Shown piece after piece: positions 57,901 through 64,000 of a DNA stretch of 64,000 nucleotides. How positions within the stretch are numbered: the first letter of the stretch is position 1; each line of letters starts with the position of its first letter. Origin of the DNA: Escherichia coli (lineage in GTDB: Bacteria; Pseudomonadota; Gammaproteobacteria; Enterobacterales; Enterobacteriaceae). A program made the position numbers. The stretch lies in assembly GCF_001677475.2 (NCBI RefSeq), contig NZ_CP015229.1. The stretch is one strand, 5' to 3'.

Positions 57901-60900
57901 TTTGAATATCGGTCTTGGGCAGTGCGAAAAATGGGATGAAGCCGCCATTCGCGCCCGAGCCGATCGTCTGGCCGATCTCGCGGTTCAGGTCTGGCAAGCG
58001 CCTTCTCTTCCTGAAGAGGTATTAGCTGTTTATCGGGGTCAGCCGGAGAACAAAACCAGTTACAGCCTGAGTGATTATCCTTTCCTTGCTGATGGTTCGC
58101 ATAGCCGGGTGTTATTCGATCATCTTCGCGATGAAGTTATGCGCCTGGACGCAGGGATCACACAGGAAGTTTTAAAGCTGTATATTGCGTTTAAAGCGGA
58201 AACGAATTTTGTTGATGTTGTGCCGCAAAAAAGCCGACTGCGATTGTCGCTTAATATGCAGTTTCATGAACTGGTCGATCCGAAAGGTATTGCCAAAGAT
58301 GTGACAAATGTTGGGCGCTGGGGCAATGGTGATGTGGAAATTGGTTTCAGCGACCTCGCACAACTTCCTTACATTATGGGATTAATTCGTCAGGCATTTG
58401 AAAAACAGATGGAGAGTGCGTTGGTATAACGTGGCGAATAATACCCGGTAGCACTGGCGCTACCGGGTCAATCTATCAGGCGACTTTCTGTTTACCGGCA
58501 ATCACCCCAATAAATTCCTGCACCTGCTTTTGTTTACGTGCCGACAGCTTGCACACCTGGCGCAGTGACTGCATCAGTTCGCTCTCTTCGGGGGCGGGTG
58601 GTTGGGTGGTGAGGATAATACAGCCTTCCATCACTTTGACATCTACCGCCGTGCCAGTGGCAAAACCGGCGGCTTCCAGCCACTGACCTTTCAGGGTGAT
58701 GGCGGGAATGCGGCTGTAATCCGGGTAGCGACTCGCATAACTCACGGTTAATTGACGGTTATTTGCTGGGGAGACTTCTGCTTCGAACGGTTGTGCAATA
58801 GAATGCGTGTCAGTCATGATTACTATTCCTTTGAAATAGGGATTGTGATTAGCGGTGCGGGTGTGTTGGCGCACATCCGCACCGCGCTAAATACCTGTAT
58901 ATATCATCAGTAAATATGGGGAAAGTCCAGCTAAAAATTAATGAAAATAAGATGAAAATTAGCGTACAATATAATTTTTGGTGATGTGAATAAAGCGGCT
59001 ATTTAGCCGCTTTATTGGTTTTATGAGGGCGAGGAAATTAGTTTATCGCCGCGTCAGTGAGTGCGTCTGCAAGGTGCAGTTGGGTTTGCTGGGCGGATTG
59101 GATATGATTCTTTAATTCTTCACATAGTTTATAAAAAATATGTAGTTTACTCATTATTTTTTTTGCTTCTGAGCTAGGAGGAATAGCAACAGGACAACCT
59201 CTGAGCTGGGTTTTATTAATAGAGGCTAAATTAGTGGTTTGCTTACTTGCGTTAGCAAAATATTGTCTTGAGAATGGGCTATTCATATATGTTTCTAACC
59301 AATATGGATCAACATCTTGCCCTATATTTCGTCCTTTGAATACATGGTTTTGATTTGCTATATACCAGTCATGACACCATACTGTAGTTCTCCCGACTGT
59401 ATCCCAGTCGCCGCCTTCTGTGATCAATAAATCTCCCTTGACTACTTGATATTTTTCTTTTTCCTCAATAGGGATTTCAATCTGTTTAATTTCCGTAAGA
59501 TCAAGATATCCGCGTTGGACGTTTGCCACACGTAAATAAGGAACTTTTACCAAAGTTCTATTTGATAAATTTCTTCCTTTAGTGATACCACTTTGAATAT
59601 CAATAATATCTTCAAATAAACACCACTCCCACCCTTCCGGCAGTTCAAATGGTTTTTCCTCATCGCTAATTGGCGGCAACGGTTTTTGTTTTTTTATTTT
59701 TCCTTTTTTCACCAGTTGAGCTTTTTCCTGCGCAATTCGTTTGAGCAGTTCAGAGGCAGGTTCGTCATTCGGATCCTGCGGCACAAGTTTACCCATTACG
59801 GCCAGTTGCAGAATGGTCTGTTTTAATGCATCCACGCTGGCTTCGGTGGTAAATAGTGTGTCGAAATGCTCGCTAATACGCGCCCAGTTTTCAGCCAGTT
59901 CCTCGGCGTTTTGGCTGTCTGTAAGCGTTCCCAACAGGGTTTCAACCAGTTGCTGATGTGCGTCCAGACTGGCCAAGGATTGCTGTTCCAGTTGGTCGCA
60001 AAGGGACATGAGCTCCTGTACTTTGGATACAATACGTATTTGTTCTTGGTAAGGTGGTAAAATAACAGGGATCTCTTTTAACTTAGACGCTTTTATTCCT
60101 GTTGCGGTCATGCCTGTAGATTTGTCACTTAGTTGTGACTGGAAGGGGATCGCCAGGATTTGAATAAGCATAAAAGGGCTTATCTCTGGAGTATGCCATT
60201 GAAAACAGATAGAACGTTGAGCAAGAGCGAACTTTCCGTCTAAATCAATAATCGCTGCATTCCCCAGTGGTGCTTCAGTCGTGAATAAAATATCACCACA
60301 TTTAGGAAAGCCTCTTGTCATCCATGATATGTAATCTTCTTCAGATATGAACTCTTCTGGATTGAGATCAATATAGCCCTTTCTGATATTTTTTGCTGTT
60401 ATAAGCCTTATACCATTTTCTTTTTTATGTGGTGTTTTTCCTCGGTAATCGATGAATTTAGCTAAATTACCAAGTCTTATCCATGACCACTTTTCGGGGG
60501 TATCGATATAATATTCATTTCCATGGATATTAGTGCTTGCTGTGGTTTTCATACCATTATTGCGCGCTAATTCTTTTTTCCGTTCTTCATTACGCTTCAG
60601 CAGCTCCGACGCTGGTTCATCATTCGGATCCTGCGGCACTAGTTTACCGCGCACCGCCAGTTCCAGAATCAGCTCACGCAATTTCTTAATGCCATACAAA
60701 TCAATTTTACCGGAACTGCCGCGCCCGGCGGTGGAACGGGTTTGCAACGCCGAGGTCCAGGTTGCCATATGATCAACGATCAGCTTTTCCACACTCATCA
60801 GTTAACCTCCTTGCCAGACAGCGCAGCGCCAAGAATATCGCGCAGTTGATTACGCAGCGTCTGGATCTCCGCCTGCTGTTTTGCATACTGCGCTAACAAT

Positions 60901-63900
60901 TCATCTGGATCATGGCTGACGGTTTCCGCCTGATGTGGGTTTTTAATATCCAGATTGAAGTTACGCGCAATCACGTCATCAATGCTGACTTTCCACGCCT
61001 GCTCATTCTCGACGCGGCTGGCAAAACCATCGGCCTCGTTACCCCACCAGTCGATCTCCGCCTGAAACTCTTCAAACTTCATCGGCTTGGTTTTGCTGTA
61101 ATTTTTCACGCCCGCCGGATACGGATGCTCATAGAACCAAATCTCTTTGGTTGGCTGACCTTTGGTAAAGAACAACAGGTTGGTTTTAATGCCGGTATAG
61201 GGGTTAAACACACCATTTGGTAAACGCACGATGGTATGCAGGTTGCACTCTTCGGTAAGTAGCTTTTTGATTTTGGTTTTAACACCTTCGCCAAATAGCG
61301 TGCCATCCGGCAATACCACCGCCGCGCGACCGTTTTTCGCCAGTACTTCCACAATCAGTTGCAGGAACAGATCCGCCGTTTCGCGGGTTTGCATCTCTGC
61401 CGGAAAGTTCTTCTCAATACCGTCTTCTTCCGTGCCACCAAACGGCGGGTTGGTAACAATGACATCCAGTTGTTCATCCCAGGAGGAAAGCGGTTTGTTC
61501 AGGGTGTTGTCGTGACGAATTTGTACCGGTACTTCAATGCCGTGCAGCAGCATATTGGTGGTCGCCAGCAGGTGCGGAAGCTGTTTTTTCTCAACACCGT
61601 GGATCTGTTGTTGCAGCGTCTGATGATCGGCGACGCTCTTCACGTATTTGTTCTTTACATGATCGAACGCGCAGGCAAGAAAACCGCCCGTACCGCAGGC
61701 CGGGTCCATAATGGATTCGCCGAGTTTCGGATCAACGCGATCCACCATAAAGCGAGTGACGGCGCGTGGAGTATAGAATTCGCCCGCATTGCCCGCAGAT
61801 TGCAGATCTTTAAGGATCTGTTCGTAAATATCACCAAACAGATGGCGTTCGCTGGCGCTGGTAAAGTCAATTTCGTTCAGCTTGTTGATCACCTGACGCA
61901 GTAGCGTACCGTTTTTCATATAGTTATAGGCATCGCTGAACGCCTGCTTCACCACGTAGCCGCGTGGGTTTTTATCGATAGGCGCAGTGAGGTTTTTCAA
62001 CGCCGGGAACAGATCATCATTAACGAATTCCAGCAGGGAATCACCGGTAATGCCCTGAGCGTTTGCGGCCCAACTGCGCCATAAATAACGCTGTGGGATC
62101 GGATATTGATAGTTATCCTGCTCCAGTTCCAGCGCCTCTTCCTGGGCATCGAAGATTTTCAAAAACAGCAGCCAGGAGAGCTGACCGAGACGCTGCGCAT
62201 CGCCGTCCACACCGGCATCTTTGCGCATAATATCTTGTAATGATTTGATTACTGAACTGATAGACATGTTGTATTCCATGAAAAACAAGGCCTTCTGCAA
62301 CATGATGGTTGCAGAAGGCGCAAAAGAGAGTTGTTAAGCAGAGCGGGGCGGTAATTGGTAGATTTCGTTTTCCAGCTCGCTGAGCGCCTGATTATACCCG
62401 TTACGGTCGCCAAATCCGGTTTTAATAATCTCCGGTAAGGTGCCCATGCTGTCGAATGGTTTAAGTTTCAGCACCTGAATACTTTCGATCTCCTGTACGC
62501 CCGCATCGGCGTATTTATCCAGCAGATTATCGAGCACGGCTTGCGCTGCTTCAGAGTATTTTGTGAAGTAGTTCCGCTTGCGCACGTTCTCGGCGCGCTC
62601 TTTGCGGGTTAACGGCGGCTGACCATACACTACGTGGCAAAGCATGTCGAACGGGTCGAGATCTTTACCGACTTCTTCTGCCAGCACTTCCCAGATGATC
62701 CCCTGTTGCTCCAGCTCGTGAATGATCGCTTCTTTGCGATCGGCGTCCTGCCACTTGCGGGTAAAGTCATCCAGCGAGGCATATTCTTTGAGCAGTGTTT
62801 TACGGGTGTAATCTTTAAAGGATTCGGTAACCAGTTTTCCGTCGGCATCGTAATACTGAACGCGCTGTGCAATAACGCCCACCGCCACGCCATTGACGTG
62901 AAACTTGCGGATTTTCTTCTCGTCTTCTTCCGGAAGTGGGCCAACATCATCGGTATCGGTAACCTGGTATGGCGGCGCAGGCGGTTCATCAACGCCTGTC
63001 ACCTGCTCTTCGTCATGTTCGCTGATTTCTTCGAGTTTCTCTTCAAAATCAGATTCTGGATCGGCGATATCCTCTGGTGTGGTATCCATGACTTTTTCGG
63101 GAATGCCATCGAAACGCTCATCGGCAAACAGTTCGGTGGCTTTTTTAAAGTCGAGGATGGTAAACCAGAGTTTGCCGTAACGTTCGTCGATGCGTGTACC
63201 ACGACCGATAATCTGCTTGAATTTGGTCATCGACTGGATGTTCTGATCCAGTACTACCAGTTTGCAGGTTTTAGCATCCACACCGGTGGTCATCAGCTCT
63301 GAAGTGGTCGCGATAACCGGGTACGGTTTTTTCGGGTTGATGAAGTTATCCAACTGAGCTTTGCCAATTTCATCATCACCGGTAATTTTCATGACGTATT
63401 TGTCGTTCTTTTTCACCTGCTCCGGGTTGAGATTAACCAGGGCGCGGCGCATACGTTCTGCATGATCGATGTCGTTACAGAAGACGATGGTTTTATCCAT
63501 CGGGTTGGTGCGCTTGAGGTAGTCGGTAATGGTTCTGGCAACCAGTTCTGTGCGTTCGTCGATTACCATTGTGCGATCGAAATCTTTCTGGTTATAGATA
63601 CGATCGTCGATCACTTCGCCGTTTAAGTCAGTTTGCCCTTTGGTTGGGCGCCAGCCTTGCAGATCAACATCAATATCAACACGGACAACTTTATAAGGGG
63701 CGAGGAAGCCGTCTTCGATCCCTTCTTTTAGCGAGTAGACGTAAACCGGATCGCCGAAGTAATCCGTGCTGGAGACTTCATGGGTCTCTTTTGGCGTGGC
63801 GGTTAAGCCAATTTGGGTGGCGGAGCTGAAATAATCAAGGATCTCTCGCCAGGCGCTGTCTTCGGATGCGCTGCCGCGATGGCATTCGTCGATCACGATC

Positions 63901-64000
63901 AGATCGAAGAAATCTGGTGCGACTTGTTTAAACGCTTTTTGGTCTTCCTCCGGGCCAGTTATAGCCTGATAGAGTGCGAGGTGTATTTCATAAGCGGGAT

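Follow-up and report, generated by a model that had tools for sequence, protein, structure and literature searches.

The type IB (EcoAI) family of type I restriction-modification systems is well described in E. coli. EcoCFTI from strain CFT073 is a functional type IB system and restricts GAG N7 GTCA, which is the EcoAI site (PMC8287963). The subunits from CFT073 and from O157:H7 are 99% identical to those of EcoAO83I, which is itself 98-99% identical to EcoAI (98% for HsdM) and was assigned to IB through complementation and antibody cross-reaction (PMC2481252). As a rule, HsdM and HsdR are about 90% or more identical among the members of a family (PMC2481252). In the specificity subunit (HsdS) of type IB systems, a direct repeat begins about 50 and about 325 amino acids from the N-terminus (PMC2481252). 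The order of domains in these proteins is D2-S1-D1-S2, and HsdS from EcoAI tolerates circular permutation (PMC3874165). IB enzymes have an interval of 9 between the methylated adenines (PMC3874165, Table 1). In contrast, the EcoKI HsdS of K-12, from family IA, has the order S1-D1-S2-D2 (PMC3874165) and lacks the N-terminal conserved repeat. Alternative IA, IB, and ID alleles of hsd are already described at the locus that we consider here.

The locus and its family

We analyzed a stretch of 64,000 nucleotides from E. coli (contig NZ_CP015229.1), which we refer to as the window. It ends with an hsdR-hsdM-hsdS operon for a type I restriction-modification system, and every ORF of the operon is open inside the window:

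62334..64000, minus strand: hsdR, restriction/translocase subunit; C-terminal 554 codons of an 810-aa protein, as the end of the window interrupts the gene
62290..62319, minus strand: terminator-like hairpin between the hsdR stop and the hsdM start; 12-bp stem and 6-nt loop, then CTTGTTTTTC
60798..62267, minus strand: hsdM, N6-adenine methyltransferase subunit; 489 aa, Pfam HsdM_N and N6_Mtase
59038..60798, minus strand: hsdS, specificity subunit; 586 aa, intact ORF, two stretches of Pfam Methylase_S
58989..59016, no strand: palindromic terminator-like hairpin directly downstream of hsdS; 12-bp stem, AATAAAGCGGCT ATTT AGCCGCTTTATT

A sequence-only reading had placed the system at 59038-64000. 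This is right for hsdS and for the whole of hsdM, but hsdR is represented only by its C-terminal 554 codons, because the window stops within the gene. The first 256 codons of hsdR, where the nuclease motif is encoded, are not in the window; we read them only in DNA-identical loci, by which we mean other loci that match the window without any difference over the 10,963 nt that they have in common. These loci encode a complete 810-aa HsdR (809/810 identical to CFT073) and have yjiA beyond hsdR. On the hsdS side, the neighbors within the window are yjiR, yjiS (56075-56239), a GmrSD-like gene, symE, and SymR; symE/SymR, yjiS, and yjiR match the neighbors at the K-12 and CFT073 loci. This is an intact chromosomal hsd allele of E. 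coli. With yjiS/symE on one side and yjiA on the other, it lies in the immigration control region, which is the allelic position for IB systems. As for the start of HsdM, an upstream ATG at 62303 would give a protein of 501 aa, but it falls within the loop of the hairpin at 62290-62319, so we favor the 489-aa start.

We propose, at a probability of roughly 93%, that the locus is a type IB (EcoAI) family allele, with a permuted two-fold HsdS and exchangeable target recognition domains (TRDs), and not the IA (EcoKI) allele of K-12. The assignment to IB was also the claim of the sequence-only reading, and aligning the subunits to both families bears it out: identity is 99.8% to EcoCFTI for HsdM and HsdR, versus 20-31% to EcoKI across the subunits. 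Specifically, HsdM is identical to that of EcoCFTI at 488/489 positions and to that of strain GPT24-02 at 489/489. HsdR, over the part in the window, is identical to EcoCFTI at 553/554 positions. Both are far above the ~90% identity expected within IB. HsdM and HsdR are each 99.6% identical to the O157:H7-type IB system (EcoO157ORF5947P or EcoKO157ORF5307P in PMC2481252). HsdR also passes the NCBIfam equivalog model for the EcoAI/FtnUII family (NF046051; cutoff 550 bits) with 811 bits, and it contains the Pfam domains EcoEI_R_C, ResIII, and Helicase_C. (At such loci, "EcoAI/FtnUII family" is already the label that NCBI's pipeline gives to hsdR.) The top sequence matches in PDB are HsdR and HsdM from Vibrio vulnificus YJ016, whose HsdR is regarded as IB-like (PMC2777439). 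Like other IB proteins, HsdS has the direct repeat and is conserved at its N-terminus, in its center, and over a short C-terminal stretch; these conserved regions are 94-99% identical to those of EcoCFTI, which has the same chromosomal slot and shares the neighbors symE and the GmrSD-like gene.

Could this instead be a diverged IA (EcoKI-like) allele, or a member of family IC, ID, or IE? The chromosomal slot, the gene order, and the roles of the subunits are shared with EcoKI, as is the 1-nt overlap between the stop of hsdM and the start of hsdS (PMC3510504; cTGATGa in the window). HsdM has the generic N6_Mtase and HsdM_N domains, and one of the two TRDs (TRD2) weakly matches the C-terminal TRD of EcoKI (57.7 bits, 23% identity). 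However, identity to EcoKI is just 29-31% for HsdM, 28% for HsdR, and 20-27% for HsdS, and identity of this level is in the between-family range (PMC2481252). The NCBIfam models for EcoKI-type subunits are missed by a wide margin (125 vs. 729 bits for HsdR, NF008521; 121 vs. 662 bits for HsdS, NF007278). EcoKI's HsdR has 1170 aa instead of 810. The N-terminus of HsdM does differ from EcoKI, as had been noticed: the BLASTP alignment begins only at residue 27, with 29% identity overall. The 586-aa HsdS is indeed large compared to EcoKI (464 aa), and is close to the EcoAI-type HsdS of CFT073 (589 aa). Instead of the S1-D1-S2-D2 order of IA, the conserved segment of HsdS is both N-terminal and central. 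As for family IC, HsdM has only a 66-bit match to EcoR124II (E = 2.9e-17), and neither HsdS nor HsdR has any match to EcoR124 at E ≤ 0.001. Judging from these direct comparisons of sequence, we consider IA and IC to be refuted. ID (StySBLI) and IE (KpnBI) would be excluded indirectly, since 99.8% identity to an IB system that has been published leaves no room for another family. All of the testable sequence-based criteria favor IB and disfavor IA, and we give membership in another family next to no chance.

Architecture of HsdS and its repeat

HsdS is divided as follows:

60592..60798, minus strand: N-terminal conserved region, aa 1-69; 97-99% identical to CFT073, O157, and GPT24-02; ends with repeat copy 1
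60588..60669, minus strand: repeat copy 1 (N-terminal), 82 nt; encodes ILELAVRGKLVPQDPNDEPASELLKR
60013..60591, minus strand: TRD1 cassette, aa 70-262; a divergent linker (aa 70-100) replaces the usual conserved IAAEKAELVKQGKIKK...PEGWEW stretch
59623..60012, minus strand: central conserved region, aa 263-392; 97-98% identical among IB alleles
59733..59814, minus strand: repeat copy 2 (central), 82 nt; encodes ILQLAVMGKLVPQDPNDEPASELLKR; reference copy of the repeat family
59095..59622, minus strand: TRD2 cassette, aa 393-568; protein 100% identical to TRD2 of the O157:H7-type HsdS
59038..59094, minus strand: C-terminal conserved region and stop codon, aa 569-586; 94-100% identical among IB alleles

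The DNA repeat had been seen near 59770 and 60620, and on alignment, whose failure to find a repeat would have counted against the IB assignment, we located it at 59733-59814 and 60588-60669. The two copies are 80% identical over 82 nt and are spaced by 855 nt, or 285 codons, so they are in frame. The 23-aa segment that was reported to be repeated N-terminally and centrally is present in both places, but the copies are not perfectly identical: residues 47-69 (LAVRGKLVPQDPNDEPASELLKR) and 332-354 (LAVMGKLVPQDPNDEPASELLKR) agree at 22 of 23 positions, with R50 in the first copy and M335 in the second. Similarity at the protein level is broader and covers residues 37-106 vs. 322-392, with a local alignment score that is 24 standard deviations above shuffled sequence. 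On alignment, residues 1-36 are not significantly similar to their counterpart in the central region. A repeat of this kind, here at aa 37/47-69 and 322/332-354, has been published as the hallmark of IB HsdS, so the N-terminal plus central arrangement was correctly recognized as that of IB HsdS. When we compared repeats with the hsdS genes of CFT073 and O157, EcoKI hsdS had no repeat comparable to the IB one. In CFT073 and O157, the equivalent repeat is 192 nt, rather than 82 nt, because the TRD1 cassette in the window brings its own linker after ...ELLKR.

The arrangement can be explained by circular permutation. HsdS would be two-fold pseudo-symmetric, with each half formed by a variable TRD, then a long helix, and then a conserved tail. 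The IB chain would begin within the second conserved unit, so that aa 1-69 or further, at the N-terminus, are the tail of this unit, and aa 542-586, at the C-terminus, are its helix. A start inside the second conserved unit would leave one conserved segment both N-terminal and central. Consistent with this, the C-terminal residues 541-586 align to 249-295, where the central unit begins (z = 5.4; 0 of 500 shuffles reach this score). Also, the AlphaFold model of HsdS shows one long helix at 250-294, with shorter helices after it, and another at 542-585. Type I S subunits are the top matches of the model in Foldseek. The model is only of moderate quality (mean pLDDT 69, pTM 0.45) and is weakest in the conserved regions. 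The main support for circular permutation comes from sequence and from the literature. A global alignment of a circularly permuted HsdS to EcoKI HsdS did not score higher than the native order, as these families are too diverged for this comparison.

We also considered whether the copies within the gene act as a recombination switch. Deletion or duplication of TRD1 (855 bp, in frame) would change the specificity, much as truncation or unequal crossing-over changes it in type IC. The copies are direct and in frame, and a deletion between them would leave an intact half-S subunit of 301 aa with TRD2; truncated S subunits from IC systems do function as homodimers (PMC3874165). However, homodimeric S subunits have not been reported outside of family IC (PMC3874165). 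Also, with 80% identity and a longest exact run of 20 nt, the copies are a poor substrate for recombination. A run of 20 nt is at or under the length for efficient RecA-dependent exchange in E. coli. Comparing the copies codon by codon, 11 of the 22 codons for identical residues have synonymous differences; this heavy divergence implies that there was no recent gene conversion between the copies. Finally, we searched 5426 genomes with the junction that a deletion would create. A contiguous deletion allele should rank first, but the best 20 of the 977 matching genomes had only two-piece matches. We consider a switch to be very improbable. (Such behavior is known only for type IC and was never reported for IB.) A broader proposal is that the in-frame repeat occasionally recombines, so that TRD1 is lost (855 bp) and a 301-aa half-HsdS dimerizes with a new symmetric specificity, and that, separately, the rare pairing of TRDs has an uncharacterized target; we see a slim chance of this. 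Instead, the repeat is a structural hallmark that is maintained by selection on the protein, and is not a recent duplication or an actively recombining element.

TRD cassettes and the recognition sequence

The hsdS gene appears to be mosaic, with two TRD cassettes that other IB alleles of E. coli also carry. At the protein level, TRD1 and its divergent linker are 100% identical to those from GPT24-02. TRD1 is 26% identical to TRD1 from EcoCFTI and 25% identical to TRD1 from the O157:H7-type system, which is unrelated. TRD2 has no BLAST match in EcoCFTI. The GPT24-02 HsdS (WP_112826240.1) combines this TRD1 with a TRD2 of the EcoAI/CFT073 type, which is associated with the GTCA half-site. More broadly, this type of TRD1 pairs with 4 different types of TRD2, and this type of TRD2 pairs with 9 different types of TRD1, but none of 5426 complete E. 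coli genomes has the pairing from the window. The exact HsdS protein is present in GenBank (ANO92264.1 and others, 36 contigs). Diverged HsdS proteins with the same pairing also exist (a protein from ENA that is 90% identical and one from Erwinia aphidicola that is 78% identical), so the pairing may be old instead of a recent recombinant. In the central region, informative sites are interleaved between GPT24-02-like and O157-like alleles, so no single crossover could be mapped there, and we ruled out the GPT24-02 and O157 alleles as direct parents.

A mosaic of this kind fits an exchange of TRDs between alleles, through homologous recombination in their conserved regions. The suggestion that the repeat could reshuffle TRDs needs qualification: the assembly does look cassette-like, as exchange between alleles would produce, but recombination within the gene would delete or duplicate TRD1, and the copies share an exact run of just 20 nt at 80% identity. 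Domains are more plausibly exchanged between alleles than between the copies within the gene.

The pairing of TRD1 with TRD2 predicts a recognition sequence that is different from that of EcoAI. Since both TRDs differ from those of EcoCFTI, the target should differ from that of EcoCFTI as well. We expect the same 3' half-site as for the O157:H7-type system, because TRD2 is identical. In the literature on O157:H7, EDL933, and E. coli methylomes, we did not find a type I motif for a strain that carries either TRD. We considered a half-site from the IB HsdS of O104:H4 (presumably EcoGIV), but rejected it because its TRDs differ. We also rejected a GTGC-like half-site for TRD2, based on the match to the C-terminal TRD of EcoKI, as 23% identity is too low. 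The rare pairing may specify a recognition sequence that is yet uncharacterized.

Activity, prevalence, and significance

If the system works like others in its family, then a methyltransferase of two HsdM and one HsdS would mark a bipartite target, and the addition of two HsdR would give a complex that translocates and cuts unmodified DNA. Another view is that the locus is a decayed or silent remnant. Part of hsdR is beyond the window, and restriction-modification activity is predicted from the sequence. In other strains, disruptions of neighboring defense genes are common in this region; for instance, the GmrSD-like gene of the O157-type locus contains a 1-nt indel. On the other hand, all three reading frames are open, and their lengths are canonical. 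The catalytic motifs are intact: DPACGTG (188) and NPPF (273) in HsdM, and DECH at residue 293 of HsdR, as numbered in the full 810-aa protein from the DNA-identical loci. The translationally coupled TGATG junction is retained, and strains in which the system has been demonstrated to be active have nearly the same proteins, with 99.8-100% identity (PMC8287963). The case that the locus is functional rests on the intact ORFs and motifs, and these make decay or silencing unlikely.

IB systems are about as common as IA systems in E. coli: among 5426 complete genomes, IB hsdM is present in 965 and IA hsdM in 929. So, the locus is ordinary, and only its pairing of TRDs is rare. Beyond the correct annotation, its importance is small and nothing about it is surprising. 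It is one further example of the re-pairing of TRD cassettes among IB alleles of E. coli. The hsd allele decides which foreign DNA the strain restricts and which bipartite sites become methylated, which has a bearing on transformation efficiency, on phage host range, and on the interpretation of methylomes for this lineage.

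Gene layout and family of the restriction system

The three hsd genes lie on the minus strand, with two predicted hairpins:

62334-64000, minus strand: last 554 codons of hsdR, which runs off the window end
62290-62319, minus strand: terminator-like hairpin between hsdR and hsdM (12-bp stem with 7 G-C pairs, then a T-run)
60798-62267, minus strand: hsdM, 489 aa; an ATG further upstream, at 62303, would lengthen the ORF
59038-60798, minus strand: hsdS, 586 aa
58989-59016: second palindromic hairpin, 3' of hsdS

The sequence-only reading had proposed that this system belongs to family IB (EcoAI-like) and is not the EcoKI (IA) allele of K-12. 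This assignment stands on every sequence criterion, in comparisons that covered families IA, IB, and IC. Alignment to EcoAI-type and EcoKI proteins, which had been suggested as the check, gave near-identity of HsdM and HsdR to IB proteins and 20-31% identity of the three subunits to EcoKI. Specifically, HsdM matches CFT073 at 488/489 residues and the HsdR fragment at 553/554, and O157:H7-type HsdM and HsdR are 99.6% identical to the window proteins. Assemblies that share 10,963 nt of identical DNA with the window encode a full-length HsdR of 810 aa (809/810 identical to CFT073), with DECH at residue 293 and a nuclease-type motif, D61...E76-x-K78. EcoCFTI of CFT073 is a functional type IB system whose target, GAG N7 GTCA, is the EcoAI sequence (PMC8287963). 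The CFT073 and O157:H7 subunits are 99% identical to EcoAO83I, which was placed in IB by complementation and by cross-reaction with anti-EcoAI serum, and which is 98-99% identical to EcoAI (PMC2481252).

Identities to the K-12 proteins (29-31% for HsdM, 28% for HsdR, and 20-27% for HsdS) are in the between-family range quoted in PMC2481252. HsdR scores 811 bits against NCBIfam NF046051 ("EcoAI/FtnUII family"; cutoff 550), while the EcoKI-type models are far below their cutoffs (125 vs. 729 bits for R and 121 vs. 662 bits for S). Among solved structures, the top matches are HsdM and HsdR of Vibrio vulnificus YJ016, whose HsdR is regarded as IB-like (PMC2777439). HsdM reaches 140 bits with the EcoKI M subunit and 66 bits with that of EcoR124, and a search of the solved-structure sequences (E <= 0.001) gave no IC matches for HsdS or HsdR. 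The Pfam domains are as expected: ResIII, Helicase_C, and EcoEI_R_C in HsdR; HsdM_N and N6_Mtase in HsdM; and two copies of Methylase_S in HsdS.

The hsdM stop overlaps the hsdS start by one base (cTGATGa), as is also reported for EcoKI (PMC3510504). Of the 66 nt that separate the hsdR stop from the hsdM start, the strong hairpin at 62290-62319 takes up the greater part, which suggests that hsdR and hsdMS are transcribed separately. The alternative hsdM start at 62303 (501 aa, as in some database annotations) falls within the loop of this hairpin, so we favor the 489-aa HsdM.

A conserved repeat in a circularly permuted HsdS

HsdS is indeed large, at 586 aa vs. 464 aa for EcoKI HsdS. A 23-aa segment had been described as repeated near the N-terminus and centrally, with a DNA repeat near 59770 and 60620. 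The segment is present at residues 47-69 and 332-354, but the copies are not identical: R50 corresponds to M335. The DNA repeat is direct, 82 nt long (60588-60669 and 59733-59814), and 80% identical, with a spacing of 855 nt. At the protein level the similarity spans residues 37-106 and 322-392, is near-perfect up to 69/354 and weak beyond, and is 24 SD above shuffled sequences. EcoKI hsdS has no comparable repeat. Among the 22 codons for residues that are identical between the copies, 11 differ synonymously, so the repeat is kept by protein-level selection and does not reflect recent duplication or gene conversion.

The repeat is longer (192 nt, 77 aa) in the alleles of CFT073 and O157. The window's repeat is shorter because the TRD1 cassette brings its own linker right after ...ELLKR. 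This linker, from the N-terminal repeat copy to TRD1 (residues 70-106; 60481-60591), is NEERKKELARNNGMKTTASTNIHGNEYYIDTPEKWSW, whereas other IB alleles have a highly conserved IAAEKAELVKQGKIKKQKPLPEISEEEKPFELPEGWEW at this place. The TRD1 cassette therefore has its left boundary about 35 residues closer to the N-terminus than is usual.

IB HsdS have the domain order D2-S1-D1-S2, which is related to the IA order, S1-D1-S2-D2, by circular permutation (PMC3874165). The window protein fits the IB order, as the arrangement of the repeat had been taken to indicate. Residues 541-586 align with 249-295, where the central unit begins (z = 5.4; 0/500 shuffles), and an AlphaFold model built with 30 IB sequences shows both TRDs as confident folds, with long helices at 250-294 and 542-585. 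(The model, of moderate quality at pLDDT 69, is least reliable in the conserved regions; Foldseek ranks type I S subunits as its top matches.) Together with the alignment of 37-106 to 322-392, this implies that the C-terminus and N-terminus jointly correspond to one central conserved unit. We found no significant internal similarity for residues 1-36.

TRD cassettes and the predicted target

In protein sequence, TRD1 is identical to TRD1 of the GPT24-02 HsdS (WP_112826240.1), and TRD2 matches exactly the one in the O157:H7-type HsdS (WP_000110082.1). Among related HsdS from protein searches, this TRD2 type occurs with 9 different TRD1 types, and this TRD1 type is accompanied by 4 different TRD2 types, among them the EcoAI/CFT073 type of GPT24-02. 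TRD exchange between alleles via conserved regions is known (PMC3874165), and the modular window HsdS fits such exchange. A single crossover point could not be placed by comparison with the GPT24-02 and O157 reference alleles. The exact pairing of TRDs is limited to the window protein and a near-identical variant, besides two more divergent proteins, from an ENA sample (90% overall identity) and from Erwinia aphidicola (78%). Instead of a recent assembly within E. coli, this pairing may be an old one or may have come intact from another enterobacterial genus. In none of 5426 complete RefSeq E. coli genomes is more than 71% of the window hsdS covered; the exact protein is present in GenBank (e.g., ANO92264.1), on 36 contigs.

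As a source of TRD reshuffling, the internal repeat itself is a weaker candidate. Exchange between the copies would stay in frame, but it is predicted to delete TRD1 (leaving a 301-aa product) or duplicate it, and the longest exact run in the 80%-identical copies is 20 nt. A deletion-junction query gave only two-piece matches in the best 20 of 977 matching genomes among the 5426.

Both TRDs differ from those of EcoAI/CFT073, and in the literature searched we found no type I motif for strains bearing either one. Methylated adenines are 9 bp apart in IB systems (PMC3874165). By analogy, the window's target should be a bipartite m6A motif with this spacing and should differ from GAG N7 GTCA, its 3' half-site should be that of the O157:H7 system, and its 5' half-site should be that of GPT24-02-type systems, whose own 3' half should be GTCA.

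Neighboring genes and frequency in E. coli

Three features lie downstream of hsdS:

56336-58429, plus strand: intact GmrSD-family type IV restriction-like ORF, 697 aa (DUF262/GmrSD_N, GmrSD_C, and DUF5655), adjoining symE
58476-58817, minus strand: symE, directly downstream of hsdS
58812-58888, plus strand: SymR, the antisense RNA of symE (Rfam RF01809, 93 bits)

K-12 likewise has symE/SymR directly downstream of hsdS. A mechanical ORF list starts symE at GTG 58874 (132 aa), and the family model begins at residue 20 (113 aa). The GmrSD-family gene has a 1-nt indel in an O157-type locus; in CFT073 it is annotated in RefSeq as two CDS, yet the DNA reads through without a stop. Beyond the window end, the slot between yjiA and hsdR is a further variable cassette of the region. 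In four loci that carry the exact window hsdS (L005-L008, positions 693-1892), it holds genes of 63 aa and 322 aa; at the same position, the GPT24-02 genes are annotated as "antitoxin" and "hypothetical protein," while CFT073 and O157 have DUF262/HNH genes instead.

Among complete E. coli genomes, IB-type hsdM is about as frequent as IA-type (965/5426 vs. 929/5426), RefSeq annotation of matching loci already calls hsdR "EcoAI/FtnUII family," and alternative hsd families at this locus have long been known (PMC3874165). The sequence-only reading has therefore correctly classified a locus of an already known kind.
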